Assembly: GCA_009844405.1 (NCBI GenBank)
Contig: VYBO01000138.1
Span: 1,514 to 65,513 of the forward strand
Direction: 5' to 3'
DNA: 64,000 bases
Source of the DNA: Acidimicrobiaceae bacterium
GTDB taxonomy: Bacteria; Actinomycetota; Acidimicrobiia; Acidimicrobiales; Aldehydirespiratoraceae
Positions 1,950 through 63,551 of the stretch are shown here, piece after piece. How positions within the stretch are numbered: the stretch's first letter is position 1; every line of letters begins with the position of its first letter. A model generated the notes under the pieces. It had not been told where the DNA came from and ran no database searches. It worked only from the letters and a program-made list of their open reading frames with translations. The position numbers and the translations under genes are program-made.

Positions 1950-2043
1950 CGGGGTTCCTCCGCCTCTCGGGGCTTCTCACGCTACCGGTTCGGCGGTCGT
2001 GTCTCACGGGGCCCGTACGATGCTCGTGACTCAGGGACGGCTG

Positions 2044-3129
2044 ATGGCAGATACCAATCGCACTGAGGTGCCGACGGCATGGCTCACCAGGGCCGGCAGA
2101 CATGGTGAGCGCGAGGATTTCGTTCTTGAACACGGCCTTGCGGGCACCGGCTGGGCCGACCTTCCTGATCTGTCGGGGATCTCCAGCCGTGGAGAGATGA
2201 AGGACATGATTCGCCGGCTGCTCCCTGGCAGGAGCAAGATGAGCGTGGCCAACTACTCAGGCCAACTGTGGGCGCTGCGAGCACATGTGAGCATCGGCGA
2301 CCTGGTCGTGCTGCCTCGCAAGAAGACACGTCAGATTGCAATCGGCGTGGTGACCCGGGAGTACTGGTACCGGGACGATCCGGACCCGGGCAGGCGTCAC
2401 GTGGCATCGGTGGACTGGAAGCGCACCGACGTGCCCTGGGAGGCCGCCCACGAGGATCTCCGGAACTCACTGAGTTCGCTGCGAACCATTTGCGCGGTCA
2501 AGTGTGACGACGGGGCACAACGCCTCCGCGATCTGATGACGACGGGCCGAGATCCGGGTACACCGAATCGTCCTGGGGCCATGACACCGAACGATCGCAT
2601 GACGCCGTCGGAGCTTCACGCTGAGTTCCTGGCTGCGCTCAGCGACCTGGTTGTCGAGTCTTCAGACCTTGGGGTCAAGCCGCTGGAACTCAAGATGGAG
2701 GGTTCACTCCCCTTGCGGGCTCGCGTGTACATGTACAACGCGACCCGTCCTCCTGGAGGCCGTCCTGCTGGCGAGTACAAGATCCAGCTCATCGTGCCGA
2801 ATCACGAGCGAGGACGGCGAGGCAACTTCGATCTCGCGGACGGCCGGATTGTGCTCCTCGTGGGCTACGCAGCTGACGACGCCGTGTTTGTCCTCTGGGA
2901 CGCCGGTGCCTACCGAGACTTTGCCTATTCCCGGAACTTACAGGTCAAGTCCGAGACGATCCTGGCCGCCTTCGCCCGCGGGATCGGCCTGCAAGAGCGG
3001 AGGCTGCGACCGGGGGGAGGGATGATGGTGCGCGAGACAGTCGTGGCAGCGACCGGAGAACATCTCGCAGAAGCGATCGCCCTGCGAGTCGATCTGTCCC
3101 GCAAGCGTCTCCTGGGCGAACTGAACTGA
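2044..3129 (+). CDS. two-domain protein: Mrr-type N-terminal sensor domain (COG4127-like) plus uncharacterised domain X shared with the 7816-8802 product
   Basis: N-terminus WLTRAGRHGEREDFVLEHGLAGTGWADLPDLSG...GQLWALRAHVSIGDLVVLPRK.TRQIAIGVV..EYWY matches the pattern I recall at N-termini of Mrr-cat restriction proteins. The C-terminal 150 aa (RVYMYNATRPPGGRP.GEYKIQL...VLLVGYA.DDAVFVLWDA...DFAYSRNLQV) is paralogous to the 7816-8802 product. No catalytic motif seen. ATG at 2044 chosen; 2020 is also possible. Confidence 0.65.
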   Translation: MADTNRTEVPTAWLTRAGRHGEREDFVLEHGLAGTGWADLPDLSGISSRGEMKDMIRRLLPGRSKMSVANYSGQLWALRAHVSIGDLVVLPRKKTRQIAIGVVTREYWYRDDPDPGRRHVASVDWKRTDVPWEAAHEDLRNSLSSLRTICAVKCDDGAQRLRDLMTTGRDPGTPNRPGAMTPNDRMTPSELHAEFLAALSDLVVESSDLGVKPLELKMEGSLPLRARVYMYNATRPPGGRPAGEYKIQLIVPNHERGRRGNFDLADGRIVLLVGYAADDAVFVLWDAGAYRDFAYSRNLQVKSETILAAFARGIGLQERRLRPGGGMMVRETVVAATGEHLAEAIALRVDLSRKRLLGELN

Positions 3130-3130
3130 G

Positions 3131-5254
3131 ATGAGCAGCCTGCGCGATGTCATGTTGAAGCTCTCGTACCACAAGGGCGAGGACGACATCGCAGCCGACT
3201 TCTACCTGCCGTGCATGCGTCGCTCCCACCGCTACGACCGAGCGGTCGGGTTCTTCAGCAGCAGCGTGTTTGTGCTCGCGTGGCCAAGTCTGCGGGAATT
3301 CGCCGCTTCCGGCGGTCGGATGAGGCTCGTCTGTTCGCCTGCTCTTTCGAGTGACGACATCGACGCGTTGAACGTCGGCTACAGCCCCTCTGGAGCCGAG
3401 CAGTTCTCGACTGACGCTCGCGAGGAACTGCAGCGACTCCTAGCCTCGCCCGTACTTCAGAAGCCGACGAAGGTTCTCGCGAGCCTCGTCGCTGGTGGCG
3501 TAATCGATCTCCGCATTGCCTGGATTGAGCCGCAGACCGCGGGTCGTAGCCGAAGGATCTTCCACGACAAGGTCGGGATCTTCTCCGATGTCGACGAACA
3601 GCAGGTGGTGTTCAAAGGATCCATGAACGAGACCTGGCTCGGACTCTCAGCCGACGGCAACCTTGAGTCGATCGATGTCTTCGCGTCCTGGCGGAACGAG
3701 GAGAACGAGCGACGCGTGGCCGATGAAGTCGAGTACTTCGACAACCTCTGGCACGATCAGCAGCCGGGTGTCACCGTGACGCCGTTCCCAGAAGTTGTCC
3801 AGCAAGAGCTGCTTGAAATCGCCGACGAGTTGCACTGGGAGGACCATGTCGACGAGATCTGTCAGGAAATGGAGACGGACGCCGGTGTCACCGCAGATCA
3901 CAGGCTGGGCACCCGGACTCCCCGCCCACACCAAGTTGCAGCACTCGATGCCTGGGAACAGCGGGGCCGGCGAGGCATCCTCGAACACGCCACGGGCAGC
4001 GGCAAGACCTTCACGGCGCTGTGCGCGATCCATGAGAGCCTGGCACTCGGCGAGGTCCCGCTCGTGCTCGTTCCGAGTGAACTTCTACTCGCCCAGTGGC
4101 AGGACGAACTCACTACAACATTCGAATCTCAGGGGCTCCAGCTGCTGGTGTGTGGTGGGGGGCACCGAGCCTGGGAGGACCAGCGACGGCTCTCGCTTTG
4201 GACTCGCGACGACAGTCTGGCCGAGCCTCGGGCGGTGCTTTCGACCATACAGACCGCAAGTTCAGAGGAGTTCAGGCGGCTCCTTCGCGACGGATCTCAT
4301 CTCTTCGTTGTCGCCGACGAGGTGCACCGAACCGGAAGCCCGACGCACCGCCAAGTGCTGCACTTCTCTTCAGGTCCACGAATGGGGCTCAGCGCGACTC
4401 CCAGGCGGGCAGGCGACCCGGTCGGAACTGCCGCGCTCATGGACTACTTCGACGGGATCGTGCCGCCTCCATTCACACTCCAAGATGCGATCGCGGCAGG
4501 CAGTCTGACGCCCTATTCGTACCGTCCCCACCGGGTGTCGCTTGACGCCGACGAACAGGACGAGTGGGACCGACTCACCGCCGAGATCGGAAGGCATCTC
4601 GCGATCCGTGGCGAGGAGGAGCCGGCCCCAATCGATGACGCGATCCGGCGTCTACTCATTCAGCGTGCGCGCGTCGCCAAGAAGGCCGCCGCGAAGAGCC
4701 CTCTCGCGGCGGAGGTCGTGTCACGGTACTTCGAGCAGGGGCAGCGCTGGCTTGTCTATTGCGAGGACCGAGAACAGCTTCGATCCGTCCGGGGCGCTAT
4801 CGGAGCGATGGGGGTACGGGAGGTCTACGAGTACCACTCCGCGATGGAAGGCGATCCGGAGTCGACGCTCCGCGTCTTCGAGCAATCTGGCGGAGTAGTG
4901 ATCGCCATTCGCTGCCTCGATGAGGGTGTGGACATCCCGGCCACGACCCACGCCCTCATCCTGGCGTCCTCGCGCAACCCGAGAGAGTTCATCCAACGGC
5001 GTGGCCGCGTTCTTCGCACCGCACCCGGGAAGTCGATTGCGCACATCCACGACGCCATCGTCCTCCCTTCAGGCCTCGGCCAAGACGTGCCAGTAGGTTC
5101 GATGGTGAAGGGTGAACTGGCTCGAGCGATCGAGTTCGGCCAGCACGCCGTCAACCCGGATGGGGTAGTCGAACTGAAGACGATCGCGGTTGACTACGGT
5201 CTCGACTGGAAGGCTCTAGTAGAAGAAGGATTCGAGATTGACGAAGACGAATGA
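3131..5254 (+). CDS. PLD-family (HKD) nuclease domain fused to SF2 DEAD/DEAH-type helicase
   Basis: HKD motif IFHDKVGIFSD...FKGSMNET. Helicase motif I ATGSGKT, motif II ADEVH, motif III LSATP, motif VI QRRGRVLR. ATG lies 1 nt after the upstream stop. Confidence 0.85.
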   Translation: MSSLRDVMLKLSYHKGEDDIAADFYLPCMRRSHRYDRAVGFFSSSVFVLAWPSLREFAASGGRMRLVCSPALSSDDIDALNVGYSPSGAEQFSTDAREELQRLLASPVLQKPTKVLASLVAGGVIDLRIAWIEPQTAGRSRRIFHDKVGIFSDVDEQQVVFKGSMNETWLGLSADGNLESIDVFASWRNEENERRVADEVEYFDNLWHDQQPGVTVTPFPEVVQQELLEIADELHWEDHVDEICQEMETDAGVTADHRLGTRTPRPHQVAALDAWEQRGRRGILEHATGSGKTFTALCAIHESLALGEVPLVLVPSELLLAQWQDELTTTFESQGLQLLVCGGGHRAWEDQRRLSLWTRDDSLAEPRAVLSTIQTASSEEFRRLLRDGSHLFVVADEVHRTGSPTHRQVLHFSSGPRMGLSATPRRAGDPVGTAALMDYFDGIVPPPFTLQDAIAAGSLTPYSYRPHRVSLDADEQDEWDRLTAEIGRHLAIRGEEEPAPIDDAIRRLLIQRARVAKKAAAKSPLAAEVVSRYFEQGQRWLVYCEDREQLRSVRGAIGAMGVREVYEYHSAMEGDPESTLRVFEQSGGVVIAIRCLDEGVDIPATTHALILASSRNPREFIQRRGRVLRTAPGKSIAHIHDAIVLPSGLGQDVPVGSMVKGELARAIEFGQHAVNPDGVVELKTIAVDYGLDWKALVEEGFEIDEDE

Positions 5255-5438
5255 GCAGTTCGAGTCGCTGCTGGAGACCCTCCTGTCAGTTCGCGGCTCC
5301 CTGCACCAAGACATACCGGAATCCCTTCTTCGCGAGATCGTCTCCGCCCACGTGGAGGAACCCGACAACACGAGGATCCATCAACGAGTTCAGCAAGCGA
5401 TCGAGAACAGAATGGGCGAGGCCGATGCTTCGGATTGA
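5238..5438 (+). CDS. small acidic hypothetical protein (66 aa)
   Basis: TTG start overlaps the helicase 3' end by 17 nt, and the ORF overlaps the ATPase start by 14 nt. The alternative frame (the track 5251 ORF N-terminus) looks non-coding. Helical, acidic composition. Confidence 0.45.
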   Translation: MTKTNEQFESLLETLLSVRGSLHQDIPESLLREIVSAHVEEPDNTRIHQRVQQAIENRMGEADASD

Positions 5439-7386
5439 TCGAGTCGAACTCGAAGACTTCGGACCCTTCAAGGGCCGCCAAGCGATCAACTTGCCCGAGG
5501 CGCCAGGCGTGGCCGTGGTCTACGGCGAGAACATGCGGGGCAAGACCGTCCTGCTCAACGCGATTCGCTTCGCGCTCTTCGGCAAGGTGCTCGGTCGAGC
5601 CCGTCGCGAGGGCTCGCTCCATACCATCGGCAACTGGGAGCAGGCCGCCGCGGGCCAGTACGGATTCGAGGTGGTCCTGCAGTTTCAGGACGAAGGAAGC
5701 CAGTACAGACTCACGCGATCCTGTCGGCCGCGCTCGGGAGTCGTGCCTGAGCAGCACAGCGACTACGACGTCAAACATTTCCTTCAGCGCGACGGGGAGG
5801 TGCTCGGCCCTGGTCAGGCCATCGCTGAGATCGAGCGAATCATGCCGGAGAAGATCGCTCGGTTCTTCCTGTTCGACGGAGAACTCCTGCAGGAGTACGA
5901 GGATCTCCTGCGCAACGAGAGCGACATGGGACGCCAGATCAGCGAATCGATCGAACAAATCCTCGGAGTTCCAGTGCTCACGCGTTCACGGGCGACGCTT
6001 GCCAAGCTGCTCGACGACTATGGAAAGAAGGAGGCAAAGAGCGCTCAGGCCAACACGATCACGAGCGAACTCGGAACCCAGATGAACGTCCTGCTCGACC
6101 AACGCCAAGTTCTTCAGGACGGACTTGACGACATGGAGGTGAGCCTCGCTCAGTTGCGTGAGGACAAGGCAGACCTGGACGAGCAGCTCCGCCGCAACGA
6201 GCGCCTCACAGCGATGATGGACAAGCGCGACATGCTCCTTGACGCCATCGAGTCGCTCGATGAACAGATCGAGGCTCGTCAAGCCGAAATCGCCATCGAA
6301 ATGCGAGTGGCGTGGAAGTCACTCGTCGCCGCTCGTGCATCTGACCTAACCGGAGGCCTGCGAGATCGAGAACGACGCTTACAGCTCCAGAAGATGCGAC
6401 ACGAAGTCCTACGGGCTTCGGCTGATCGAGGCGTAGGCCCCGACAAGTGCCCGACATGCTTCCAAGTGCTCAGCGACGAAGTGCTCGCGCAGATGGAGGA
6501 GGCTGCTGCCGGCGAAGCGGCCAAGATCGAAGATATCGAGCGACAGTTGCGCGACATCCAGCGACGCCTGGACGCCCTGGAGGACGCTGCCCGAGTTTCA
6601 AGTGAGACCGGTCTACGGATGCTCTGGAGCGACCTTGACCGCCTCAAGAGAGACCGGTACACCAATGAAGACGAAGCTTCAGAACTCGATCGTCGGCTGC
6701 AGGAAGCAGGGGACGACCAAGGCGCCGTTCGTCAAGCGCAGTACGAACAGGAGCAGACCGTCAAGAAGATCGCCCTGCTGGAGGAGGGGATTGGAGAACA
6801 AGAGGACGCGCTCGCCGAGAACGAGCGCGATCTGGAGAGAGTCCGAGCACGTCTGGCGTCCAGCGGTGGAGCGGACGTCGAAGGTGCCCGGCAACGGCGG
6901 CGTTTGTGCGCCGAATTGCATGGGTTGTTTGACCAAGCAGTCGCCAGGTACCGCGACCGACTCCGTCGAAGCGTTGAAGCCGACGCCACCGAACTCTTCT
7001 TGCAGCTCACGACCGAGCCAGAGTACGCGGGATTGCGGATCAACGAGAGTTACGGGCTCACAATCCTCCACCAGGACGGTTCCGAGATACCGGTGCGCTC
7101 CGCTGGCGCAGAGCACGTCGTAGCCCTGTCCCTCGTAGGCGCTTTGCAGAAGAACGCCCCCCTGCGAGGCCCGATCTTCATCGACTCACCATTCGGACGG
7201 CTCGACACCCAGCACACTAGGAATGTCATCTCCGCCCTGCCCAGCATGACGGAGCAGGTGTGCCTCCTCGTGTACGAGGAGGAGCTGCGACCGCAGCTTG
7301 CTCGGGAGCTGCTTAGGGGACAGCTACATGCCGAGTACTCCCTACGTCGGGTTTCCGCCCGTCACACTGAACTCGAAGAGAGATAG
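5425..7386 (+). CDS. DndD-like SMC/ABC ATPase (AAA_23 type) with coiled coil and CxxC hook
   Basis: N-terminus MLRIDRVELEDFGPFKG...VVYGENMRGKTVLLNAIRFALFG (Walker A). Long coiled coil with CPTCFQ. C-terminal IFIDSPFGRLD Walker B/D-loop, as in DndD and Rad50-like proteins. Confidence 0.8.
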   Translation: MLRIDRVELEDFGPFKGRQAINLPEAPGVAVVYGENMRGKTVLLNAIRFALFGKVLGRARREGSLHTIGNWEQAAAGQYGFEVVLQFQDEGSQYRLTRSCRPRSGVVPEQHSDYDVKHFLQRDGEVLGPGQAIAEIERIMPEKIARFFLFDGELLQEYEDLLRNESDMGRQISESIEQILGVPVLTRSRATLAKLLDDYGKKEAKSAQANTITSELGTQMNVLLDQRQVLQDGLDDMEVSLAQLREDKADLDEQLRRNERLTAMMDKRDMLLDAIESLDEQIEARQAEIAIEMRVAWKSLVAARASDLTGGLRDRERRLQLQKMRHEVLRASADRGVGPDKCPTCFQVLSDEVLAQMEEAAAGEAAKIEDIERQLRDIQRRLDALEDAARVSSETGLRMLWSDLDRLKRDRYTNEDEASELDRRLQEAGDDQGAVRQAQYEQEQTVKKIALLEEGIGEQEDALAENERDLERVRARLASSGGADVEGARQRRRLCAELHGLFDQAVARYRDRLRRSVEADATELFLQLTTEPEYAGLRINESYGLTILHQDGSEIPVRSAGAEHVVALSLVGALQKNAPLRGPIFIDSPFGRLDTQHTRNVISALPSMTEQVCLLVYEEELRPQLARELLRGQLHAEYSLRRVSARHTELEER

Positions 7387-7394
7387 GGGGCGTC

Positions 7395-7781
7395 ATGGCT
7401 GAAGACAAACGAACGATCGGGGTGACCGAGGCCGCAGACGGTGTTCTCGCCGTGATGGTCGAGCAAGGGCATTTCTCCGACGCCATCGACGCTGCCAAGT
7501 TCGCGATGGCCCTCGCGATCAACTCGCGGGGGCACGCGGAGGACCTCACGGTCGAGGGCACCACCACGAAGTGGAACGTCGGCAGCTTCGATCCGGACAG
7601 CCAACTCCGCTCACTCCTCGACGCCCTCTATCCGGATGTCGATCAGCCGTACCGGCTGCTTGAGTTCTTGATCGATGACGGGCTCCATCGTGTAAGCGAA
7701 CACATGGAGTCGGTAGGCGAGCTCGATGTCATCGCGTTGCTCGACGAGGCCGGGACCCGTCCTAGCGCAGCTGCGCCGTAG
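7395..7781 (+). CDS. small protein, possibly DndE-like
   Basis: 128 aa, 8 nt downstream of the ATPase. The N-terminal pattern RTIGVTEAADGVL...DAAKFAMALAINS recalls the DndE N-terminus (R.h.s......L..l......n...R.A...SL). Assignment is tentative. Confidence 0.4.
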   Translation: MAEDKRTIGVTEAADGVLAVMVEQGHFSDAIDAAKFAMALAINSRGHAEDLTVEGTTTKWNVGSFDPDSQLRSLLDALYPDVDQPYRLLEFLIDDGLHRVSEHMESVGELDVIALLDEAGTRPSAAAP

Positions 7782-7815
7782 AGGCCCGAAACCAGAGGTA
7801 CAGCGGTTCCACGTA

Positions 7816-8802
7816 TCAGACGCAGGTGTCGAGCAGTTCGTCGAACACGTCCGGCCAAGACAAGGCAACGCCATGAGACTCGCAGAGGTCGGGCCAGTAG
7901 GCCGACGATGGCTCCCGCTCGACGGCCAGCACGGGGTTGTTCTCGAACCCCCAGTCGACGAGATGTGCGTAGCTGAGCACCTGCCCGAGACCCAGCCGTA
8001 GCTGCCGTTCCTCGTTGGTGGGGGTGAGGCTCTTCACCTCTGCGATCCATGCAGCGTCGGCCGCAATCCACCCAACATCGACTAGAGGGTCCGAATCGCT
8101 CGGCGACAGCGGCTGCCATCCGCGCGCTCGGACAGCATCAGCAAGCTGGTTCTGGACCTTCCTGTGCGCGTTCGTTCCTCGATCGATCGCATCCGGATCG
8201 AATCTGAACACGCGCGACGTGGGAGTCGCCGAGCCGCCGGACGAAGGGCGCACATAAGGCTGTCCCTGCGTTGCCGGGACGCCCTTGCCGCGAGATTCTG
8301 CTTCCCCGCTTGAAGCACGCTCCTCGATGGCCTCGACCACCAGCTGACTCGGGGCGCAGATTACGACCTCCATCCCGGTCTTCAATCGACGGTCCTGGCG
8401 CACACGCACACCCGAGGCGGCCGCAGCCTCAACATTGGCCGTTCGGACCTGGAGATTCGTCGAGTAAGCGAAGTCGATGCGCAATGCAGCGTCCCAGAAG
8501 ACGAAGACGTCATGTTCAACGGCGTAGCCGCAGACCAGCACCAGGTCGACCCCTGACCAGTCGAACTCGCCCCGTTCGCCGCGGCGCTGACCGGTGAGTT
8601 GGATCTTGTGCTCCGGGGTCGGTCGGCCGCCAGGAGGGTCCGTCGCGTTGTAGATGTAGACCCGAACACGACTGGGCAGAGGGGGACGGAGTTCCACAAC
8701 GAGTTCGCCGGAGTCATCCGTCCTCGCCGCGATGAGTGCGGTGGGACCAACGGCGGCAACGAATCGGTCGTGAAGCTCCGTAGTCGAGAGCCGATCAGTC
8801 AC
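7816..8802 (-). CDS. domain X plus C-terminal PD-(D/E)xK-type nuclease
   Basis: The N-terminal 150 aa aligns with the 2044-3129 C-terminus at roughly 45% identity by eye. The C-terminus has DPLVDVGW...AAWIAEVKS...QLRLGLGQVLSY, a D...E-x-K restriction-endonuclease-like motif. Confidence 0.7.
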   Translation of the reverse strand: MTDRLSTTELHDRFVAAVGPTALIAARTDDSGELVVELRPPLPSRVRVYIYNATDPPGGRPTPEHKIQLTGQRRGERGEFDWSGVDLVLVCGYAVEHDVFVFWDAALRIDFAYSTNLQVRTANVEAAAASGVRVRQDRRLKTGMEVVICAPSQLVVEAIEERASSGEAESRGKGVPATQGQPYVRPSSGGSATPTSRVFRFDPDAIDRGTNAHRKVQNQLADAVRARGWQPLSPSDSDPLVDVGWIAADAAWIAEVKSLTPTNEERQLRLGLGQVLSYAHLVDWGFENNPVLAVEREPSSAYWPDLCESHGVALSWPDVFDELLDTCV

Positions 8803-8829
8803 GTCACCTTCCTGCGCCCCGCTGGTGGT

Positions 8830-10596
8830 CTACGCGTAGTACGCGCTGCCCACTCGTTCGAACCGATTGTTGCAGAGCTGCTCGAACGCCCGGAGCGAGA
8901 GTCCAACCGGTTTGGCACCACCGCCGATCACTGCGCTCACGGCGACCGAGTAGAGGTAGTCGAGCTGGCGCTGCGGTGAGGTGCTGCGCTCAAGACTCTC
9001 AAGGTGCGCCGTCACGGCATCGACGGCTATGTCGCCCGCCCCGTTGAGCCGCGGGGTGCCTTTCTTTGCGACGTCGAATGTCATGACGAGGTCGTAGAAC
9101 GGCACAAGCTCTCCTCGCCTGACCTTGTAGCCCTTCTGACTGCGCTGACCCTTGTCAAGGATCGACACCTCCGCCTGGCGAAGGCCAGCATCCTCTACCG
9201 CGTCAAGGAGCGCACTCCACACGGCGTCGTCCGAGTTGTGGAACACGACAGAGACGCGCCCGTCCTTGACGACGACACGCTTCGCCTCTCGGAAGGAGTC
9301 GGTGAGCAGCCGCTGATAGTCGCCGACCGTCTTGCCTCCGTCTTCGACGCGACGCGACTTGTTGACGACGATCTCCTGGTCGTTGTCGGTCGGATCTCCC
9401 AGCCACGCCTCCCAGACGATGTTGCAATCCGCGTAGTGGATGTTGTTGCCGAAAGGTGGATCGGTGAACACGTAGTCGACCGAGTTGTCAGCGAGCCAAC
9501 GCAAGTCAGTCGCGGACGCCTGGTTCACGTCGACTTCACCGTCCGGGAGCACGTCGTAGAGCCGGCATACCTGGCGCACCTGGTGACGGAAGACCTCGAA
9601 CACGTTGGGCTCCGAGATCAGCTGCGGGATAAAGAGAGTGCCGGTCAGCGGACGCTGGCCTCCCTTCGCGTTGTAGCGTCGCATCCGGCTGGCGTGCCAC
9701 GCCGTGTTCGTAAAGGCGAACTGCAGCGCCTCCCGAACGGCCACATCGTCTACTTGGCCAATTCGATGCCACAGCCGCGAGAGCGCTATGGCTGGGCGGC
9801 GAGCGAACATGTCGGCGACCGTCTGCACCCCACGAAGATGAAGCGCCGACCTGATGTACATCTCACGGGACGAGTCGATCGGCGCTGTCGGCATCCAGCG
9901 AGTGACCCGCCGACGTCCGATCTTGTCGATCCGGTTGAGCGCTTCGACGGTGGGATCGCCATGGACGAGCTTTCCGCCTGATACAGGGGCAAGCGTGATC
10001 CACCGAGGCACGGATGCGATCGGGACGCCGCCTCTCCGGTCGAACCACCATCTACAGCCATCACAGCGAATGTCACGAGGCAGTGGCCGGTCGGGCTCAG
10101 TCGCATCCCATAGAACAATCTCCGACGCGCACATCGGGCACTCGTAGACCTCCGACCAGACGGTATGGCGCGCTAGCCCCTGGACAACCCCGTCATCGGT
10201 GTCGACTGACGACCAGTACAGGTCGCGTTCTGTCCGCCGCATCCAAGAGCGGTCGAGCTCAGCGACAGCGTCGGACAGCTGCTCGGGGGACACACGTCGT
10301 GTGTGGTTGCGGGCGAGGTGCACAGCGCCGGGCGACAGGTCCGAGAGCGCCGCTCGGCGGCCTGCGAGCACAGCCGCAACTCCTGTCATGCCGGATCCGC
10401 AGAACGGATCGGCGACCAGACCGCCTGGCGCGGTCGACGCCTCAATGAAGGGTTCGATCGCCTCGGGCGGAACCTTGGTGGGATAGGTGTGCGACGTGTA
10501 CCAAGGCCCACCCTTGGAGCCCGTCACACTTGGGGGCAACGGCCGATGAGCAGCCAACGACGGCAGGCCTACTTGCTGTTGGCGGGCAGATTCCAT
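8830..10596 (-). CDS. amino (N6-A/N4-C) DNA methyltransferase with central Zn-ribbon region, paralog 1
   Basis: H.Y.TKVP...DPFCGSGMTGVAA (motif X/I) at the N-terminus, CPMC...CDGC insert, DYVFTDPPFG (motif IV) in the C-terminal half. Confidence 0.85.
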   Translation of the reverse strand: MESARQQQVGLPSLAAHRPLPPSVTGSKGGPWYTSHTYPTKVPPEAIEPFIEASTAPGGLVADPFCGSGMTGVAAVLAGRRAALSDLSPGAVHLARNHTRRVSPEQLSDAVAELDRSWMRRTERDLYWSSVDTDDGVVQGLARHTVWSEVYECPMCASEIVLWDATEPDRPLPRDIRCDGCRWWFDRRGGVPIASVPRWITLAPVSGGKLVHGDPTVEALNRIDKIGRRRVTRWMPTAPIDSSREMYIRSALHLRGVQTVADMFARRPAIALSRLWHRIGQVDDVAVREALQFAFTNTAWHASRMRRYNAKGGQRPLTGTLFIPQLISEPNVFEVFRHQVRQVCRLYDVLPDGEVDVNQASATDLRWLADNSVDYVFTDPPFGNNIHYADCNIVWEAWLGDPTDNDQEIVVNKSRRVEDGGKTVGDYQRLLTDSFREAKRVVVKDGRVSVVFHNSDDAVWSALLDAVEDAGLRQAEVSILDKGQRSQKGYKVRRGELVPFYDLVMTFDVAKKGTPRLNGAGDIAVDAVTAHLESLERSTSPQRQLDYLYSVAVSAVIGGGAKPVGLSLRAFEQLCNNRFERVGSAYYA

Positions 10597-12377
10597 GCGT
10601 TTCCCTTCCTCTCAAGAATCTCGCTGCACAGAGACTCGACGGCGGCGAAGCTCCAGCCGGCAGGCGATGCACCCTCGGCGAGTAGGTAACGCATCACTTG
10701 CGAGTGCAACCACGGCGTAGTCCGACGCGATGCAGGCTGGTGCGCGACGTACTCCCTTAGTTCCTTCTCGATCTCGGATCGGTCCACTTCGCGGCGCTGG
10801 ACATTGGGACCGGGCTGGGTTCCAGCAGCGAGGTGCATCACGAGGTCGAAGTTCGCGACCTTCTCACCCTTGTCCTCATGTCGGAGTCCCTTGAACGACG
10901 CCTGCCCCTTGTCCATCACGACGGCAGCTTCTACGCGCAGCCCCGCCGAATCGACAGCGTTCTGAATGGACGACCAGACCGCATCATCTGAGTTGTGGAA
11001 CTGCAGCGAGGCCCAAGCACCCGGCCGTATCACACGACTTATCTCCCCCATCGCCCGGCTCATCGCCTTCTCATAATCGTCGAGCGTCGTTCGGCCCAAC
11101 TCGGCCGTCAAGCGCCTGTTGACCACAGTCTCAGCAGCAACGTCGGTCTGCTCGCCCAGCCACGCCTCCCACAGGAAGGACGAGTCGCTGTAGTAGATGT
11201 TCGAGCCGAATGGCGGATCGGTGAACACGTAATCGACGCTGCCATCCGCTGCCCACGCGAGCTGCTCGGCCGATCCGAGGTAAACCTCACACGAGCCCGG
11301 CGCGTCCCAGGTCTGCCGGTACATGTCGGTGATGGTCGCAAGCTTGCGGCGGAAGAGGCTGAACACGTTGAACTCGTAGTTCAGCGATGCCAGATACATG
11401 GTGGACGACAAGACGTTGGTCGGCCGCCTCGGATGCCACTGGTAGCGACGAGAGGCGCGGTTGACACTTGCGGTGAACACGAAGCGAAGGCCGGCGCGAA
11501 GTGAAGGTTCCTCAACCTGCCCGATCGCATTCCAGAGTGCCGACAGTGCGTGCAGGTTGCGAGCCGTGAAGAAGTCTGCCGAGGTGACAATGCCTTGAAC
11601 CTCGTGCTGGGCTCGCCACATCTCGCGCCATGACTCCCAGGGAACGCTCGGGTACCAGTGCAGGATGTCAACCCGTTCGACTCGGTCCCCCTGTCCCGTC
11701 GCCTCGACCGGCCTCACGAGTCGAGCCGCTTGACCGTCCAGGCTGATGTTCTCTTGCACCGGCTGGGAACGCAGCCAGTGGAGGTCCGTCTTCCTGAAGG
11801 GTCCGTGGCCCTCAGAGCACGACAGCGCCTTAAGGACAGATCCGTCTTCATGGTCTACTGCCGCGTCCCAGAACAAGATCTCGCGCTCGCATCGCGAACA
11901 CCGGTAGAGGTCAGACCAGACCGTGTATTCGATCCGTCCCCCGGGCACGCCATACAGATCCAGCTCCAGTGGCCCAAATCCGGCAAGTAGCTCGGAGGCA
12001 ACCTGCTTGAAGCGATCGGGATCGACACGCGCGGTGTACCCGCGCGCGATGTGAACCGCGGCCGGCGACAGATCGGACAGCACTGCATGCCGACCAGTCA
12101 GCACCGCGGCGACGCCAGTCTGACCAGACCCGCAGAACGGGTCAAGCACCACATCGCCAGGATCGGTGTAGTGCTCGATCAGCTGCTTTAGGCCCTCCAC
12201 CGGCACCTTCGTGTGGTACGAGTGCGCCCGGTAGAAGACGCTCCCCTTGCCGCCCGCGATGTCCACCGTCATGGGCTCACGAGGCCGCTCTTCGTCGCGC
12301 GCTGAGTCTCCGAGGCGAGGATCAACCATGAGCTGCCGTCCTCGTTCCGTAGGAGCAGGCGGCAGACATCTCGCCAA
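10569..12377 (-). CDS. amino (N6-A/N4-C) DNA methyltransferase, paralog 2
   Basis: HSYHTKVP...DPFCGSGQTGVAA, CSRCE...C..GH insert, DYVFTDPPFG. Overlaps the downstream paralog by 28 nt. Start is uncertain (12377, 12329 or 12272). Confidence 0.85.
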   Translation of the reverse strand: MARCLPPAPTERGRQLMVDPRLGDSARDEERPREPMTVDIAGGKGSVFYRAHSYHTKVPVEGLKQLIEHYTDPGDVVLDPFCGSGQTGVAAVLTGRHAVLSDLSPAAVHIARGYTARVDPDRFKQVASELLAGFGPLELDLYGVPGGRIEYTVWSDLYRCSRCEREILFWDAAVDHEDGSVLKALSCSEGHGPFRKTDLHWLRSQPVQENISLDGQAARLVRPVEATGQGDRVERVDILHWYPSVPWESWREMWRAQHEVQGIVTSADFFTARNLHALSALWNAIGQVEEPSLRAGLRFVFTASVNRASRRYQWHPRRPTNVLSSTMYLASLNYEFNVFSLFRRKLATITDMYRQTWDAPGSCEVYLGSAEQLAWAADGSVDYVFTDPPFGSNIYYSDSSFLWEAWLGEQTDVAAETVVNRRLTAELGRTTLDDYEKAMSRAMGEISRVIRPGAWASLQFHNSDDAVWSSIQNAVDSAGLRVEAAVVMDKGQASFKGLRHEDKGEKVANFDLVMHLAAGTQPGPNVQRREVDRSEIEKELREYVAHQPASRRTTPWLHSQVMRYLLAEGASPAGWSFAAVESLCSEILERKGNAWNLPANSK

Positions 12378-12470
12378 GGCTACGTCGGTTCGACATAGTC
12401 CTCCGTGGAACGGCCGGATGAAGAACGGCCAAGTGATGAGACATGGCCTGACAACCTACGGACCGGGTGT

Positions 12471-12511
12471 GACAATTGTCGAACGCGTGTTCGTTGCCGC
12501 AAGTTGCGGCA
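12471..12511. promoter_or_regulatory. cluster of three palindromes upstream of the methyltransferase operon
   Basis: GACAATTGTC (12471-12480), CGAACGCGTGTTCG (12480-12493), TGCCGCAA-G-TTGCGGCA (12495-12511). Function unknown: could be an operator or the terminator of the Lon-N gene. Confidence 0.3.
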
Positions 12512-17360: not shown

Positions 17361-17411
17361 GCCCAGCGAGGCCGAGGCCCGAGCGGCCCGTGAACGCAGC
17401 GAACAAGAGCG
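17361..17411 (-). repeat. truncated copy (R5) of the dispersed 96-nt intergenic repeat, inverted relative to R1-R4
   Basis: CGAGGCCGAGGCCCGAGCGGCCCGTGAACGCAGCGAACAAGAGCG is the reverse complement of the left half of R1-R4. Lies just after the tkt stop. Confidence 0.7.
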
Positions 17412-17455
17412 GAAAGCACGGGCTGTCCTGTGATGCAGGGGAGGACCACTCCGAG

Positions 17456-25927: not shown

Positions 25928-25951
25928 GCGGCTCCGGGCTGTCGTGATTCT

Positions 25952-26047
25952 CGCTCTTGTTCGCTGCGCTCACGGGCCGCCCGGGCCACGGCCTCGCTCG
26001 ACCCTGCGCCCGATTCGTCACGAGTCTCCGCCCTCCCGCTCGGCCTC
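25952..26047 (+). repeat. dispersed 96-nt intergenic repeat, copy R1
   Basis: CGCTCTTGTTCGCTGCGCTCACGGGCCGC.CGGGCCACGGCCTCG...CCCGCTCGGCCTC. Its right end supplies the last 9 codons of the DUF3151 gene. Confidence 0.8.
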
Positions 26048-26485: not shown

Positions 26486-26505
26486 CGCCGCCGAGGCTAC
26501 AGTCC

Positions 26506-26601
26506 CGCTCCTGTTCGCTGCGCCCACCGGCCGCTCGGGCCACGGCGTCGCTCCGCGCCACGTCGGGCTTCCCCCGAATTGCCGCCTACCCGCTCGGCCT
26601 C
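26506..26601 (+). repeat. dispersed 96-nt intergenic repeat, copy R2
   Basis: Same ends and the same 96-nt length as R1 and R3, with a more diverged interior. Confidence 0.75.
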
Positions 26602-35007: not shown

Positions 35008-35013
35008 GCTCCC

Positions 35014-35109
35014 CGCTCTTGTTCGCTGCGCTCACGGGTCGCTCGGGCCACGGCCTCGTTGGGCGTACCGGTGGAGCCATCACGAATCGCCGCTTTCCCG
35101 CTCGGCCTC
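35014..35109 (+). repeat. dispersed 96-nt intergenic repeat, copy R3
   Basis: Fills the gltB-gltD intergenic gap and ends 3 nt before the gltB stop codon. Confidence 0.8.
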
Positions 35110-48135: not shown

Positions 48136-48178
48136 GCGACGGCCCGCCGGTCGCGTCGGGCGGGCTCCGCACCACTCC

Positions 48179-48282
48179 CGCTCTTGTTCGCCGCGCTCGC
48201 GGGCCGCTCGGGCCACGGCCTCGCCCGTATGGGGCGCGTTCGCCCGTATGGGACGGATTCGCTCGAATTATCGCTCGGCCTC
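48179..48282 (+). repeat. dispersed intergenic repeat, copy R4 (104 nt, internal 19-nt duplication)
   Basis: Same ends as R1-R3. CGCCCGTATGGG occurs twice (48222 and 48241). The right end overlaps the stop codon of the RNA methyltransferase gene. Confidence 0.75.
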
Positions 48283-60623: not shown

Positions 60624-62292
60624 TCACTCGCGCTTCACAGATGCGATGGTGAGCGTCACCCCCGCTTCGGCGAGCGAGGAGTCGAGCCGGGTGAGGGTCA
60701 CCTGGCTGAAGCTGAACAGCTCTTCGGCGGTGATCGGTTCGGGCCGGGCCATGGCGAGCATCACAGAGCTCAGTCGATCAGGGAGCCAGCTGGGGTCGCC
60801 GCCGGCATCAGTCGTCAGCTTCCGCAGTTGCTGGCGCGCCTCGTTGTCGTGTCGGAGAGCATCGGTGGACACCAGAGCCTGGGCGATGAGGTGGCTGACC
60901 GCCGATGACTTCGGCGTGTGCTTCACGTGGATGATTAGCCCATCTTCCGTGATGATGTCGCATGCCTCGAAGCCCCGTGGGTGCTGGGTCGTCCTCAGCA
61001 GCTGCCGGTCGAGCATGACGCAACCAAGCGACGCCGCAGCCATGGCGTTGTAGGCCCCTTCGCCGGGATGAGTCGAAACGGTCCAGTCCGGGAGCGAGAC
61101 TGCCGGTGGACGTGCGAAGATCTCGTCGACGTGGGCTTGAAGGCGCTGGGCGTAGTCAGTGTCCATCGCATACCAGCGAGAGTCGAACAGGCAGTAGCGG
61201 ACTCCGCTGATTTCAATCTCGAAGAAGAGCCAGTGGATAGCCGGGATTGCGCCGCTAACTGGCTCCTCGCCATCGCTGTCGCGGAAGAGCTGCACCTTGA
61301 TCGAAGAGGCTCCGGCGAGCCGGTCGCCAGGAGCCTTCCGCTCGATCGCTTCCAGCAGGTCATCGAGACTTGGCAGGTCGTCTCTCGCCTCGACGTTGTG
61401 CTTGCCGGTTCCCAGCAGCTTGAAGGCTGAGGGTGTTCCGTTGTCGTCGATGCGCTCGTGGGGCCAGCCAAGCGCCAGCCTCCCATTGGATCCGCCCTCG
61501 AGAGCAGCCCGCAGCTCTGCCTCGAGCTGCTCGATCATCTCACCGTTCTTGACACGAACGAACTGCTCGAGCGCCTGGAGTTCGGGCTGAGCAGTGAGAT
61601 CGAGGGTCGCGGCGATGGCGTCCAAGTCGCTCATGAGGAGTCGGGGTGTCTTGCCAAGCGGGACGCTCAGCGCAGCAGCAGCACGGATCCGAACACTGGC
61701 GTCTCCAAGCGCGAGACCCGACACCGTGGCTGAGCCGCTGATGCGTGTAACGACTTCGCCGAAGTCGCCGATCCCGAAGCCGCGAAGCGCCTCCCCGGCG
61801 GGGATCGAGGACCGATCGGTGCGCGCACGGTGGTCGAGTTCGCTCCTCGTCAATGACTGAATCGCATCCGGCTGGGCAGTGCGGATGGCTACTCGCATCC
61901 CGAATCCGGGATCGGTGTGTGCTGGCTCCAAGAGCTGAAAAGCCCATACCGTAGGCGAGTGCCCATGCCTCGGTCGGGGCAGCGCGGATCACGAGCACGG
62001 CAGCGGCTGTTGTGTTGCCGAGACTGATGCTCACGCCGGACAGCGTCGAGAGCCGCCCCGCCCAAGTTGTCTGCTCGCGGTGCATGGCTCCAGTCACGAG
62101 CAGCGATTCGCTGCCCTCGACTACCCCCGAGGTGGCCGTGAAGGCGCCGGGACCGAGGTACTTGGAGCGGATTGCATCGCTGAGATCGGTGATCCCACGC
62201 ATCCGATACAACGTGGTCCGGACAGACGGGGACTCCTTGCGAGGCACCCACACATTGTGGCCGATCAGGTGGCGTGAGGGACTGACCGCCAC
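60624..62292 (-). pseudogene. TIGR04141/DUF6119-like sporadically distributed protein, interrupted by a 1-nt frameshift
   Basis: The N-terminal part (...TEAWALAYGMGFSAL) is in one frame. The continuation (LEPAHTDPGFGMRVAI...FEACDIITEDGLIIHVKHT.KSSAVSHLIAQ) is in another. The junction is near a T4 run at 61937-61940. Confidence 0.6.
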
Positions 62293-62408
62293 GACTGCGA
62301 CGGGCGCTCTAGCCGCCGGAGACTCCGAACGATGTCGGAAGGATCATCGAGGCCACGCGCTCGGCTGCATCGGACTGAACCATTCACGATGCGCACACCC
62401 GCGGTTCT

Positions 62409-63551
62409 CTACAACTCGACGATCGGCCGATCGTCTACGGCCGCCGCTAGGAGGTCATGCATGTCGTCGATCGGGAGGTGGGCAGTGCGGACGAGGTCCT
62501 CAACTGACACGTCCGCTTCGATCTCTGCTCGCCGCATCGAGCGTTCGACAAGCATCGGTGCCTCCGGGGCACCCATCTCGCGATCTCCCGGCTCCTGCTT
62601 GCGCCAACCCCGAGCGGACATGTAGCGCATGGCTGCCTGGTATGCCTCGGGTGAGAGGACTCTCAAGGTTCGAGCCCGGTACAGCAGCGCTGACATCGAC
62701 AGACCCCACACGCGCTTCATCTCCGCGAGCCGCGACCACCCTGTAGCGTCCAGCCGCGATGGCAGCTCCTCAAGCGCGCTAGCTTCTGGAAGCAGAAAGG
62801 ATGCAGCGAAGTTCTGGGCCTGGCTTTCGACCTGCTTGGTACCGGGTTCGGCCGCTTCGTGCATCACTAGGTGTCCCAGCTCATGGCTCGCGTCGAACCG
62901 TGACCGCACGTAGTTGTCGGACTTGTCGTCGGTTAGAAGAACGAGCGGACGTACGCCGGTCCTGGTCGAGAAGGCATCGACTTTCACCGTCCCGAGAGTG
63001 AGCCGGGCTACGGCGATGCCATGGCGCTCCAACTCGCGTACGACATGCCCGATGGGGCCGTCACCGAGATTCCAGGCTCGTCGTACCAACATGGCGATGT
63101 CGTCGATCTCAGCGGCTGTTGCATCCGAGCCGACAGGGCGCTCTGGCACGTCGACTTCGGGAATTCGGACGTGCTGCTCCAGCGCTGTGACAAACTCGCC
63201 AAGAAGCACTGCCTGAGCCCGGGCGCGACGCCGTTCCCGAATGCTGGTTGAGCGGAGATCACGAAAGTAGGTGACCGGTTCGCTATCGACGGGCCACTGG
63301 GCGGAGAAGAACTCCGGTGGTACATCGAGGGCGGAGGCCAGATTAACGACTGCTGCCTCCGACGGCCGAAGTCGTCCAGATTCGATCTGGCTCAGGGCGG
63401 GCGCCGACAGGGCGTTGCCGGTCCCTGCCACTACCTGGCGTTGCGTGAGCCCTCGCAGTTCGCGAGCCAGCCGGATACGAGCCGGAATCGGTAGCGACGC
63501 AGGGTGGTCGTAGGCCTTGCTCATCTGTCCCGTCATCGTATCCCCCATCAT
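62409..63551 (-). CDS. XRE-family HTH fused to ImmA/IrrE-type zinc metallopeptidase (COG2856-like)
   Basis: HTH: IRLARELRGLTQRQVV...LSQIESG. Peptidase HEXXH: SHELGHLVMH. Confidence 0.8.
   Translation of the reverse strand: MMGDTMTGQMSKAYDHPASLPIPARIRLARELRGLTQRQVVAGTGNALSAPALSQIESGRLRPSEAAVVNLASALDVPPEFFSAQWPVDSEPVTYFRDLRSTSIRERRRARAQAVLLGEFVTALEQHVRIPEVDVPERPVGSDATAAEIDDIAMLVRRAWNLGDGPIGHVVRELERHGIAVARLTLGTVKVDAFSTRTGVRPLVLLTDDKSDNYVRSRFDASHELGHLVMHEAAEPGTKQVESQAQNFAASFLLPEASALEELPSRLDATGWSRLAEMKRVWGLSMSALLYRARTLRVLSPEAYQAAMRYMSARGWRKQEPGDREMGAPEAPMLVERSMRRAEIEADVSVEDLVRTAHLPIDDMHDLLAAAVDDRPIVEL

Follow-up and report, generated by a model that had tools for sequence, protein, structure and literature searches.

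PbeABCD is among the least understood of the modification-based defenses, and it has been studied only in its phosphorothioate (PT)-linked archaeal form. DndCDEA-PbeABCD was studied in Haloterrigena jeotgali and Natrinema (Xiong et al., Nat Commun 2019; PMC6459918). The PbeB protein of H. jeotgali consists of 66 amino acids (aa), cleavage of viral DNA by the PT-linked PbeABCD was not seen, loss of the modification was not toxic, and PT-modified virus escaped PbeABCD (PMC6459918). This mode of action, with no visible DNA cleavage, is disputed. In the text of Krishnan et al. (Nucleic Acids Research, NAR, 2024; PMC10853773), which cites their own 2020 paper, the CxC ABC-ATPase-DndE systems are equated with PbeABCD. 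According to the same text, the phosphorothioation genes of these systems can be replaced by permuted N4 or C5 methylases together with an MTaX1 gene, and the systems also occur without linked modification genes. MTaX1 is predicted there to discriminate modified DNA, and the account of the methylase-linked CxC-DndE systems is purely computational. In the literature found, methylation-linked Pbe/CxC-DndE forms appear to be described in silico only. A locus with such genes was located in a stretch of 64,000 nt (contig VYBO01000138.1, assembly GCA_009844405.1, positions 1,514 to 65,513) from an Acidimicrobiaceae bacterium, which is hereafter referred to as the window. Its eight genes, g1 to g8, constitute a horizontally mobile composite defense island of two modules with separate histories, namely, an MTaX1-PbeABCD arm on the plus strand and a trio on the minus strand that encodes two methyltransferases (M1 and M2) and an MTaX1-nuclease. 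The two modules probably share one DNA-methylation mark that is made by M1/M2.

The eight-gene block and its borders

The island contains the following features, with positions counted from the first letter of the window.

1981-2043, plus strand: left border of the island and leader of g1, with homology onset and a drop in GC content
2044-3129, plus strand: g1, 361 aa, DUF8426 domain and C-terminal MTaX1
3131-5254, plus strand: g2 (PbeA), HKD (PLD-family) nuclease fused to a superfamily 2 (SF2) helicase
5238-5438, plus strand: g3, 66 aa, candidate PbeB, the 'SP' of CxC-DndE systems
5425-7386, plus strand: g4 (PbeC), 653 aa, ABC ATPase with a predicted zinc hook
7395-7781, plus strand: g5 (PbeD), 128 aa, predicted DndE fold
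7816-8802, minus strand: g6, MTaX1 and C-terminal PD-(D/E)xK nuclease
8830-10596, minus strand: g7 (methyltransferase M2), circularly permuted beta-type amino-methyltransferase
10569-12377, minus strand: g8 (methyltransferase M1), paralog of g7
12378-12495, minus strand: right border of the island and region upstream of the methyltransferase operon, with a conserved block

An original prediction, which was made from the DNA letters alone, had described a methylation-linked defense locus of two convergent operons, and this description was supported. All of its eight open reading frames (ORFs) were present in the ORF list, and the junctions were as it had described, with a 1-nt gap between g1 and g2 and overlaps of 17 nt (g2/g3), 14 nt (g3/g4), and 28 nt (g7/g8). 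The other junctions consist of an 8-nt gap between g4 and g5 and a 27-nt gap between g6 and g7, and the convergent g5 and g6 have 34 nt between their ends (7781 to 7816).

The GC content of the eight-gene block was 62–64%, which forms a sharp trough relative to the 70–73% on both sides, and the flanking genes were housekeeping genes that encode a TtuA-like PP-loop enzyme, an S13 D-Ala-D-Ala carboxypeptidase, and a transketolase. Relatives of the block were sought in a scan using one genome per species, and the same block was recovered in other Acidimicrobiia metagenome-assembled genomes (MAGs). Closed MAGs such as OZ242297.1 and OZ220703.1 are among the carriers of the island. Co-localization in other genomes had been proposed earlier as a check, and the block indeed recurs in these MAGs and in a more divergent locus (L021). 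All eight products were 76–96% identical at the aa level in L001–L005. In nucleotide comparison, homology on the left began at 1981–1996 for L002, L003, and L005 and at 2041 for L004, and similarity on the right ended at approximately 12305–12495, with L002, L003, and L006 reaching 12492–12495. The exception to these sharp borders was L001, a near-conspecific locus that was 94% identical through the flanks. The flanking DNA of the other loci was unlike that of the window, and the flanks were mostly unlike one another. Because homology ends sharply and the flanks differ between loci, the block is a discrete unit of approximately 10.5 kb that is found in different genomic contexts, and it is co-transferred as a whole.

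No tRNA was found, and no integrase was found in the window flanks. The border search detected no terminal direct or inverted repeats; the repeats that it did detect reflected only the paralogy of the methyltransferases and of MTaX1. A promoter and terminator scan yielded the same counts as in shuffled sequence.

A conserved non-coding block (12440–12495) was observed upstream of the methyltransferase operon, and it contained an inverted repeat, CGAAC-N4-GTTCG, at approximately 12480–12493. The block was conserved in three loci (L001, L003, and L006) and, in part, in L002, and the GACAATTGTC palindrome within it was found in the window only. This block might act as an operator or promoter. In the stand-alone module of L018, a small HTH_3 gene was located upstream of the methyltransferases, in place of a block of this type.

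Gene identities in the Pbe arm and the methyltransferase trio

The proteins were searched against PADLOC profiles, and the best 25 matches per protein were listed. g2 matched PADLOC PbeA at 7e-208 over residues 3–676, and its Pfam domains were ResIII and Helicase_C; the match to TIGR04095 ('DNA phosphorothioation system restriction enzyme'; 4.6e-96, 322.5 bits) was under the curated cutoff of 600. g2 contained a single HKD motif, HDKVGIFSD...GSMN (HxK...D plus GSxN), and its SF2 helicase motifs I, II, III, and VI (GSGKT, DEVH, SAT, and QRRGRVLR) were intact. Motif inspection indicated that the catalytic motifs were intact in all enzymes of the locus. g4 matched PADLOC PbeC at 5e-219 over nearly its full length and DndD models at 2e-46. 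It contained Walker A (GENMRGKT) and Walker B (IFIDSP) motifs, and CPTC occurred at residue 342 of 653, which is the midpoint, where a zinc hook is expected; by these motifs, g4 is an ABC ATPase with a predicted zinc hook. The ORF of this ATPase can be extended in frame to 5251; however, the extension contained stop codons in L003–L005, and the PADLOC profiles start at residue 60 of the long ORF, so the start of g4 is placed at 5425.

The 66-aa ORF g3 overlaps both neighboring genes. Its frame was open in all six loci, and it is a real gene, as originally predicted, because the competing frame is interrupted. The protein was 79–91% conserved in L001–L005, the close clade within which its sequence conservation was measured, and changes at third codon positions predominated in the two most divergent loci. 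A small ORF of 62–74 aa was present at the same position in L012–L014 and L019–L021, and all examined Pbe operons for which genes had been called had a small ORF there. For four g3 orthologs, the top Pfam match was the Sp-DndD family (PF20306), which was sub-threshold (E = 0.12 to 0.0011). The assignment of g3 to PbeB is thus weak at the level of the sequence family, and its position and size match those of PbeB.

The constant presence of this small ORF also fits another explanation of the Pbe arm, namely, abortive infection. PbeB would restrain the HKD nuclease. Once PbeB is removed or altered by a phage factor, PbeA would attack any DNA, including that of the host. The text of Krishnan et al. 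2024 (PMC10853773) sets out this alternative model, and the lack of visible viral DNA degradation by PT-linked PbeABCD (PMC6459918) is in line with it. However, methyltransferases and an MTaX1/EVE-like reader are consistently linked to the arm, which favors epigenetic discrimination, and the escape of PT-modified virus (PMC6459918) also speaks against abortive infection. This explanation, which is compatible with a shared methylation mark and not mutually exclusive with it, is therefore rather improbable.

g5 had no sequence-level match in Pfam, PADLOC, NCBIfam, or PDB, and because these searches failed it was identified by predicted structure. Its AlphaFold2 (AF2) model had a pLDDT of 86 and a beta-alpha-alpha topology that occurs twice. 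The best 13 PDB matches in Foldseek were all DndE (4LRV and 5WTU), with a probability of up to 1.00 and TM scores of 0.64–0.71 normalized to the target; 7X4E was also matched. The model indicates that g5 is a DndE-fold protein with two predicted ribbon-helix-helix repeats that corresponds to PbeD. The 128-aa ORF of the original prediction therefore stands as a gene, and it is now DndE-like by predicted structure. The 64-kb window contained no second DndD- or DndE-like gene, and dndCDEA phosphorothioation genes were absent from both the island and the window.

The C-terminus of g1 is MTaX1 (PF20296, 5e-22). Its N-terminal domain (approximately residues 8–175) had been called Mrr-type, which was not borne out; neither Mrr_N nor Mrr_cat matched g1 at E ≤ 10, the domain had zero Pfam matches, Mrr_N included, even at this threshold, and a PDB sequence search with it retrieved nothing, whether the single sequence or a profile served as the query. 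The domain matched the PADLOC candidate PDC-S02 at 8.5e-48, and in the precomputed Pfam annotation, g1 homologs carried DUF8426 (PF28530), which in some relatives was fused to Mrr_cat nucleases. The AF2 model of g1 had a pLDDT of 84, and the best Foldseek matches of its N-terminal domain in PDB were EVE (2gbs and 1zce) and YTH (7yxe and 6t04) domains, with probabilities of 0.89–0.99, E-values of approximately 0.01–0.09, and TM scores of 0.44–0.55. The model thus points with moderate strength to an EVE/YTH-like (PUA) fold, and because the PDB sequence profile search was empty, this label applies at the level of the fold. Mrr_N as the identity of the domain was rejected on the empty Pfam and PDB sequence searches and on the fold search, which pointed to EVE/YTH.

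The MTaX1 domain of g1 shared 52–54% identity with the MTaX1 proteins that stand alone in other Pbe operons and 44% identity with the g6 domain, and the two domains were therefore not co-derived within the locus. Recent internal duplication as the source of both was rejected, since the g1 domain is nearer to Pbe-linked MTaX1 from other phyla-level contexts. The original prediction had treated g1 and g6 as a split sensor/nuclease pair; both genes are present, but they encode two different MTaX1 proteins with separate histories.

These features suggest that g1 may read the methylation status on behalf of the Pbe arm. A different role would be that of a Type IV-like sensor, in which the EVE/YTH-like domain binds modified phage DNA (e.g., 5-methylcytosine, 5mC; 5-hydroxymethylcytosine, 5hmC; or non-host N6-methyladenine, m6A) and recruits PbeA. 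EVE domains serve as readers in known Type IV enzymes, and both the fusion of DUF8426 to Mrr_cat nucleases in relatives and the match to PDC-S02 point in the same direction. However, most Pbe operons carry a bare MTaX1 at the g1 position, without the EVE-like domain, and the gene is always located in a methyltransferase-linked operon, where a methyl-triggered reader would clash with host methylation unless its specificity differed. A Type IV-like sensor is thus highly unlikely, and the reader of methylation status remains the preferred role of g1.

The minus-strand module begins with g6, the PD-(D/E)xK nuclease of the original prediction. The nuclease motif is indeed present, with a core of D...EVK (255) and QVLSY (QxxxY) that was conserved in the homolog alignment; the N-terminal MTaX1 domain (5.6e-19) had been overlooked. 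The methyltransferases g7 and g8 both carried motif I FCGSG (at 65 and 81, respectively) and motif IV DPPF (at 379 and 387, respectively), and they contained a Zn-ribbon CxxC...CxxC (g7) and a zinc-ribbon-like CxxC insert (g8). In both, motif IV follows the N-terminal motif I by approximately 300 residues, which represents a circular permutation of a beta-class N6_N4 methyltransferase, and residues 36–95 of g7 matched the C-terminal part of Pfam N6_N4_Mtase. PADLOC PglXI was matched by g7 at 4.5e-85 and by g8 at 2.7e-99. In the PADLOC profile MTase_II PDLC03312 (1344 positions), g8 covered 184–684 and g7 covered 775–1291; because the two proteins match its first and second halves, enzymes fused in the same M1-M2 order exist. 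g7 and g8 were 38% identical to each other, and their orthologs in L015 and L018 were 51–57% (g7) and 50–53% (g8) identical. The M1/M2 pair is therefore ancient, since orthologs elsewhere share 50–57% identity compared to 36–40% between paralogs. The DPPF motif is more typical of N6-adenine beta-class methyltransferases, and by this analogy the modified base leans towards N6-adenine, with N4-cytosine as the less likely option. In the text of Krishnan et al. (PMC10853773), permuted methylases are labeled cytosine-N4. By its gene content, the g6-g7-g8 trio is a predicted Type II-like restriction-modification (R-M) unit that appears to be autonomous elsewhere.

Related loci and a probable shared methylation mark

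Homologs of PbeD and g6 were placed in their contigs, and four layouts recurred.

Layout (i): SPPF beta-class methyltransferase-MTaX1 (176–180 aa)-PbeA-small ORF-PbeC-PbeD in one operon (L011–14 and L020)
Layout (ii): MTaX1-PbeABCD and convergent M1/M2, with GmrSD between them and without the MTaX1-nuclease (L019)
Layout (iii): the eight-gene layout of the window (L001–L005 and L021)
Layout (iv): M1-M2-MTaX1-nuclease without Pbe genes (L015/16 and L018)

The distribution of the two modules is modular. The minus-strand trio also exists without Pbe genes, and g6 was closest to the nucleases of layout (iv), with 46–49% identity. In L021, the same eight-gene layout was found although PbeD was only 63% identical. 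An Aurantiacibacter atlanticus plasmid (NZ_CP015441) carried layout (i) without MTaX1. A methyltransferase was adjacent in every independent context of the PbeD subfamily that was examined (L011–13, L014, L019, L020, L021, and the A. atlanticus plasmid), and the displayed flanks of these contexts contained no annotated or Pfam-detected dnd gene. Layout (i) operons have their own methyltransferase gene just upstream of MTaX1, and this gene is missing from the window island. More distant plasmid relatives of PbeC occurred with phosphorothioation genes (Ruegeria) or with a large sigma-like HTH protein (Lactiplantibacillus).

The earlier model, which has the methyltransferases mark self and assigns restriction to the other genes, would be a reasonable outline. 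M1 (g8) and M2 (g7) would mark the host DNA, most likely with each enzyme modifying a different strand of an asymmetric site or with both acting as a heteromer, and the MTaX1-PD-(D/E)xK endonuclease g6 would cut DNA without this mark. PbeD and PbeC would form the DNA-scanning and recognition core, with PbeA as the translocating nuclease effector and PbeB as a regulator, and g1 would report the methylation status to the Pbe machine. The roles of g1 and PbeA-PbeD were derived from domain content, the model of Krishnan et al. 2024, and the genetics of Xiong et al. 2019; the reading of the M1/M2 mark by g1 and the division of labor between the arms are thus putative. Because the Pbe arm of this lineage lacks its own methyltransferase, it would depend on M1/M2. 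Three observations argue for a shared mark: the block moves whole and keeps its layout at greater divergence (L021), the Pbe arm of the window has lost the in-operon methyltransferase of simpler relatives, and the Pbe arm pairs with M1/M2 even where the MTaX1-nuclease is absent (L019). The reader role of g1 is supported by its EVE/YTH-like N-terminal domain and by the fusion of DUF8426 to Mrr_cat in relatives.

Alternatively, two independent systems may stand side by side, namely, the R-M trio and an MTaX1-PbeABCD system that makes no use of the M1/M2 mark and either acts without modification or relies on one encoded in another part of the genome. The trio is found by itself in L015/16 and L018, it persists in L006 and L008 while the Pbe genes decay, and g1 and g6 differ in the history of their MTaX1 domains, all of which would be expected of independent systems; CxC systems without linked modification genes are also noted in the text of Krishnan et al. 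(PMC10853773). However, the block is transferred in one piece with common borders, its layout is kept at greater divergence in L021, the Pbe arm of L019 stands with M1/M2 though the nuclease is absent, and a methyltransferase is adjacent in all PbeD-subfamily contexts examined. Two independent systems are therefore unlikely, and a mark shared by both arms remains the preferred interpretation.

Several points weigh against a shared mark. Because the trio is autonomous elsewhere, its adjacency to the Pbe arm could be mere defense-island clustering. The two MTaX1 readers, g1 and g6, have separate evolutionary histories, and the pairing of a g6 homolog with a different methyltransferase in L017 speaks against a tuning of MTaX1 to a single methyltransferase. 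'Cut unmodified DNA' may be the wrong description of the Pbe arm, since Xiong et al. saw neither cleavage nor toxicity (PMC6459918). The EVE/YTH assignment of g1 is a moderate fold similarity (E of approximately 0.01, TM 0.44–0.55) for which the sequence searches were empty. By analogy, the mark may license the Pbe arm instead of simply blocking it. SspE senses PT, and a licensed Pbe arm can be likened to it. The PT-dependence that was reported for PbeABCD (PMC6459918) would be a further parallel to such an arm. Tentatively, one mark written by an obligate M1/M2 pair might be read in opposite ways, so that it blocks the MTaX1-nuclease and licenses or steers PbeABCD through the binding of g1 to methylated host DNA. 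If this were true, MTaX1 and DUF8426 would be new families of DNA-methylation readers, and the locus would represent the first methylation-dependent, possibly non-degradative, Pbe-type immunity.

Apart from these interpretations, the related loci displayed several forms of decay and exchange. In L006 (8902–10002), an internal deletion joined PbeA (to residue 372) to PbeC (from residue 190), and in L008 (10001–10510), the Pbe remnant of PbeC consisted of the last 178 residues only; both loci retained intact PbeD, the MTaX1-nuclease, and both methyltransferases. In L003 (12400–15000), the cassette was otherwise syntenic, and approximately 2.6 kb encoding a 466-aa DUF4357 protein (3e-20) replaced the MTaX1-nuclease gene. 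In L017 (7311–8267), a g6 homolog (64%) was paired with a 318-aa SPPF methyltransferase, not with the DPPF pair, and this enzyme was 63% identical to that of the six-gene Pbe operons, which indicates that MTaX1 proteins swap methyltransferase partners. A conserved Mrr_cat-like gene of 300–464 aa accompanied the stand-alone trios (L015, 4192–5394; L017, 8346–9740; L018, 2586–3984); it was 61% identical between L015 and L018 and apparently split in L018. This partner gene was sought in the window and was absent. Some related cassettes were themselves part of defense islands. A Thoeris-like pair (SIR2_2/STALD and ThsB_TIR) was located directly downstream of the cassette in L020 (10580–12555), and ThiF/BubE/Multi_ubiq (bacterial ubiquitin-like) genes adjoined the cassettes of L015 (1–1283) and L020 (143–2203).

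The window contained two further features. A second low-GC stretch (63–64%) was located at its far end (60624–63551) and comprised, on the minus strand, a DUF6119 gene that was apparently split or frameshifted into two overlapping ORFs (61540–62292 and 60624–61931) and an HTH_3 plus Peptidase_M78 (ImmA/IrrE-like) gene (62409–63551). In L004, a copy of this DUF6119 region with 66% identity was located immediately upstream of the cassette, and in L018, a DUF6119 gene neighbored the stand-alone methyltransferase trio. This stretch may be another defense-island element. In addition, a short dispersed repeat with the core CGCTCTTGTTCGCTGCG(C/T)TCACGG, followed by a GC-rich hairpin-like stretch, occurred at 17388–17415, 25948–25975, and 35010–35037, i.e., in three copies within three mismatches compared to zero expected. 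Further copies were detected by blastn at approximately 26486–26551 and 48172–48224, and the flank of L006 also contained the repeat. The repeat looks like a repetitive extragenic palindromic (REP)-like or terminator-like intergenic element.

Comparison with known defense systems

The original prediction had also held that the locus is not BREX, DISARM, Hma, or Dnd/Ssp, and PADLOC indeed gave only weak or partial matches to these systems. Among the best 25 PADLOC matches per protein, there was no PglZ or BrxC, and only the methyltransferases resembled a BREX component (PglXI); likewise, no DUF1998 or Drm of DISARM was found in Pfam or among these matches. HmaA, a SNF2/DEAD helicase of approximately 1,180 aa, was matched at E = 0.001 by a helicase fragment only, compared to 7e-208 for PbeA. 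For MADS, a weak mad2 match was observed on g8 (3.4e-11), with no other mad profile among the PADLOC matches listed, and the phosphorothioate Dnd/Ssp systems gave weak or partial PADLOC matches. An Mrr-family Type IV enzyme was rejected for g1, as Mrr_N and Mrr_cat were unmatched and Mrr_cat occurred only in relatives of its N-terminal domain.

A compact, self-contained, methylation-linked version of PbeABCD could make recognition by PbeC/PbeD, cutting by PbeA, and the role of the small protein directly testable. The locus combines intact catalytic motifs, a clear modification module, and two candidate reader domains, MTaX1 and DUF8426, for which it provides a concrete and falsifiable functional hypothesis, and natural variants are at hand in the six-gene operon, the nuclease-less form, and the forms with decayed Pbe genes. 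It is a good experimental entry point to Pbe biology, although a specialist is unlikely to be surprised by it.

DndCDEA-PbeABCD and the window island share the core order PbeA-PbeB-PbeC-PbeD, a PbeB of 66 aa, and a small PbeD. In contrast, the former requires adjacent dndCDEA, whereas the latter has methyltransferases instead, housekeeping flanks, and no dnd genes in 64 kb; DndCDEA-PbeABCD also lacks the extra MTaX1 proteins and the PD-(D/E)xK nuclease of the island. The six-gene operon of layout (i) contains orthologous PbeA-PbeD, with PbeD being 41–47% identical, and MTaX1 directly upstream of PbeA. It differs in having one SPPF methyltransferase in the operon and a bare MTaX1 of 176–180 aa with no nuclease fusion, whereas the window has the convergent M1-M2-MTaX1-nuclease instead. 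The stand-alone trios (L015/L016 and L018) contain an orthologous methyltransferase pair and MTaX1-PD-(D/E)xK nuclease, but they lack Pbe genes and carry the extra Mrr_cat-like gene.

The closest description is that of the methylase- and MTaX1-linked CxC-DndE systems in the text of Krishnan et al., and all the components named in it are present in the island, including an HKD endoDNase and SF2 helicase, a small rapidly evolving protein, a CxC ABC ATPase with a zinc hook, the cognate DndE, circularly permuted amino-methylases, and an MTaX1 gene. As this text describes such systems, the kind of gene combination is already known in silico. The earlier view of an unclassified combination therefore does not hold, given that g2 and g4 are PbeA and PbeC, g5 has a predicted DndE fold, and g3 is PbeB-like. 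Compared to that text, the window contains two MTaX1 proteins, one with a DUF8426/EVE-like domain and the other with a PD-(D/E)xK nuclease, its methylases form a conserved paralogous pair on the opposite strand, and they carry a DPPF motif in contrast to the cytosine-N4 label. The merger with an autonomous M1-M2-MTaX1-nuclease unit, the presence of two MTaX1 proteins, and the DUF8426/EVE-like fusion thus extend beyond what the text of Krishnan et al., its figures apart, describes.

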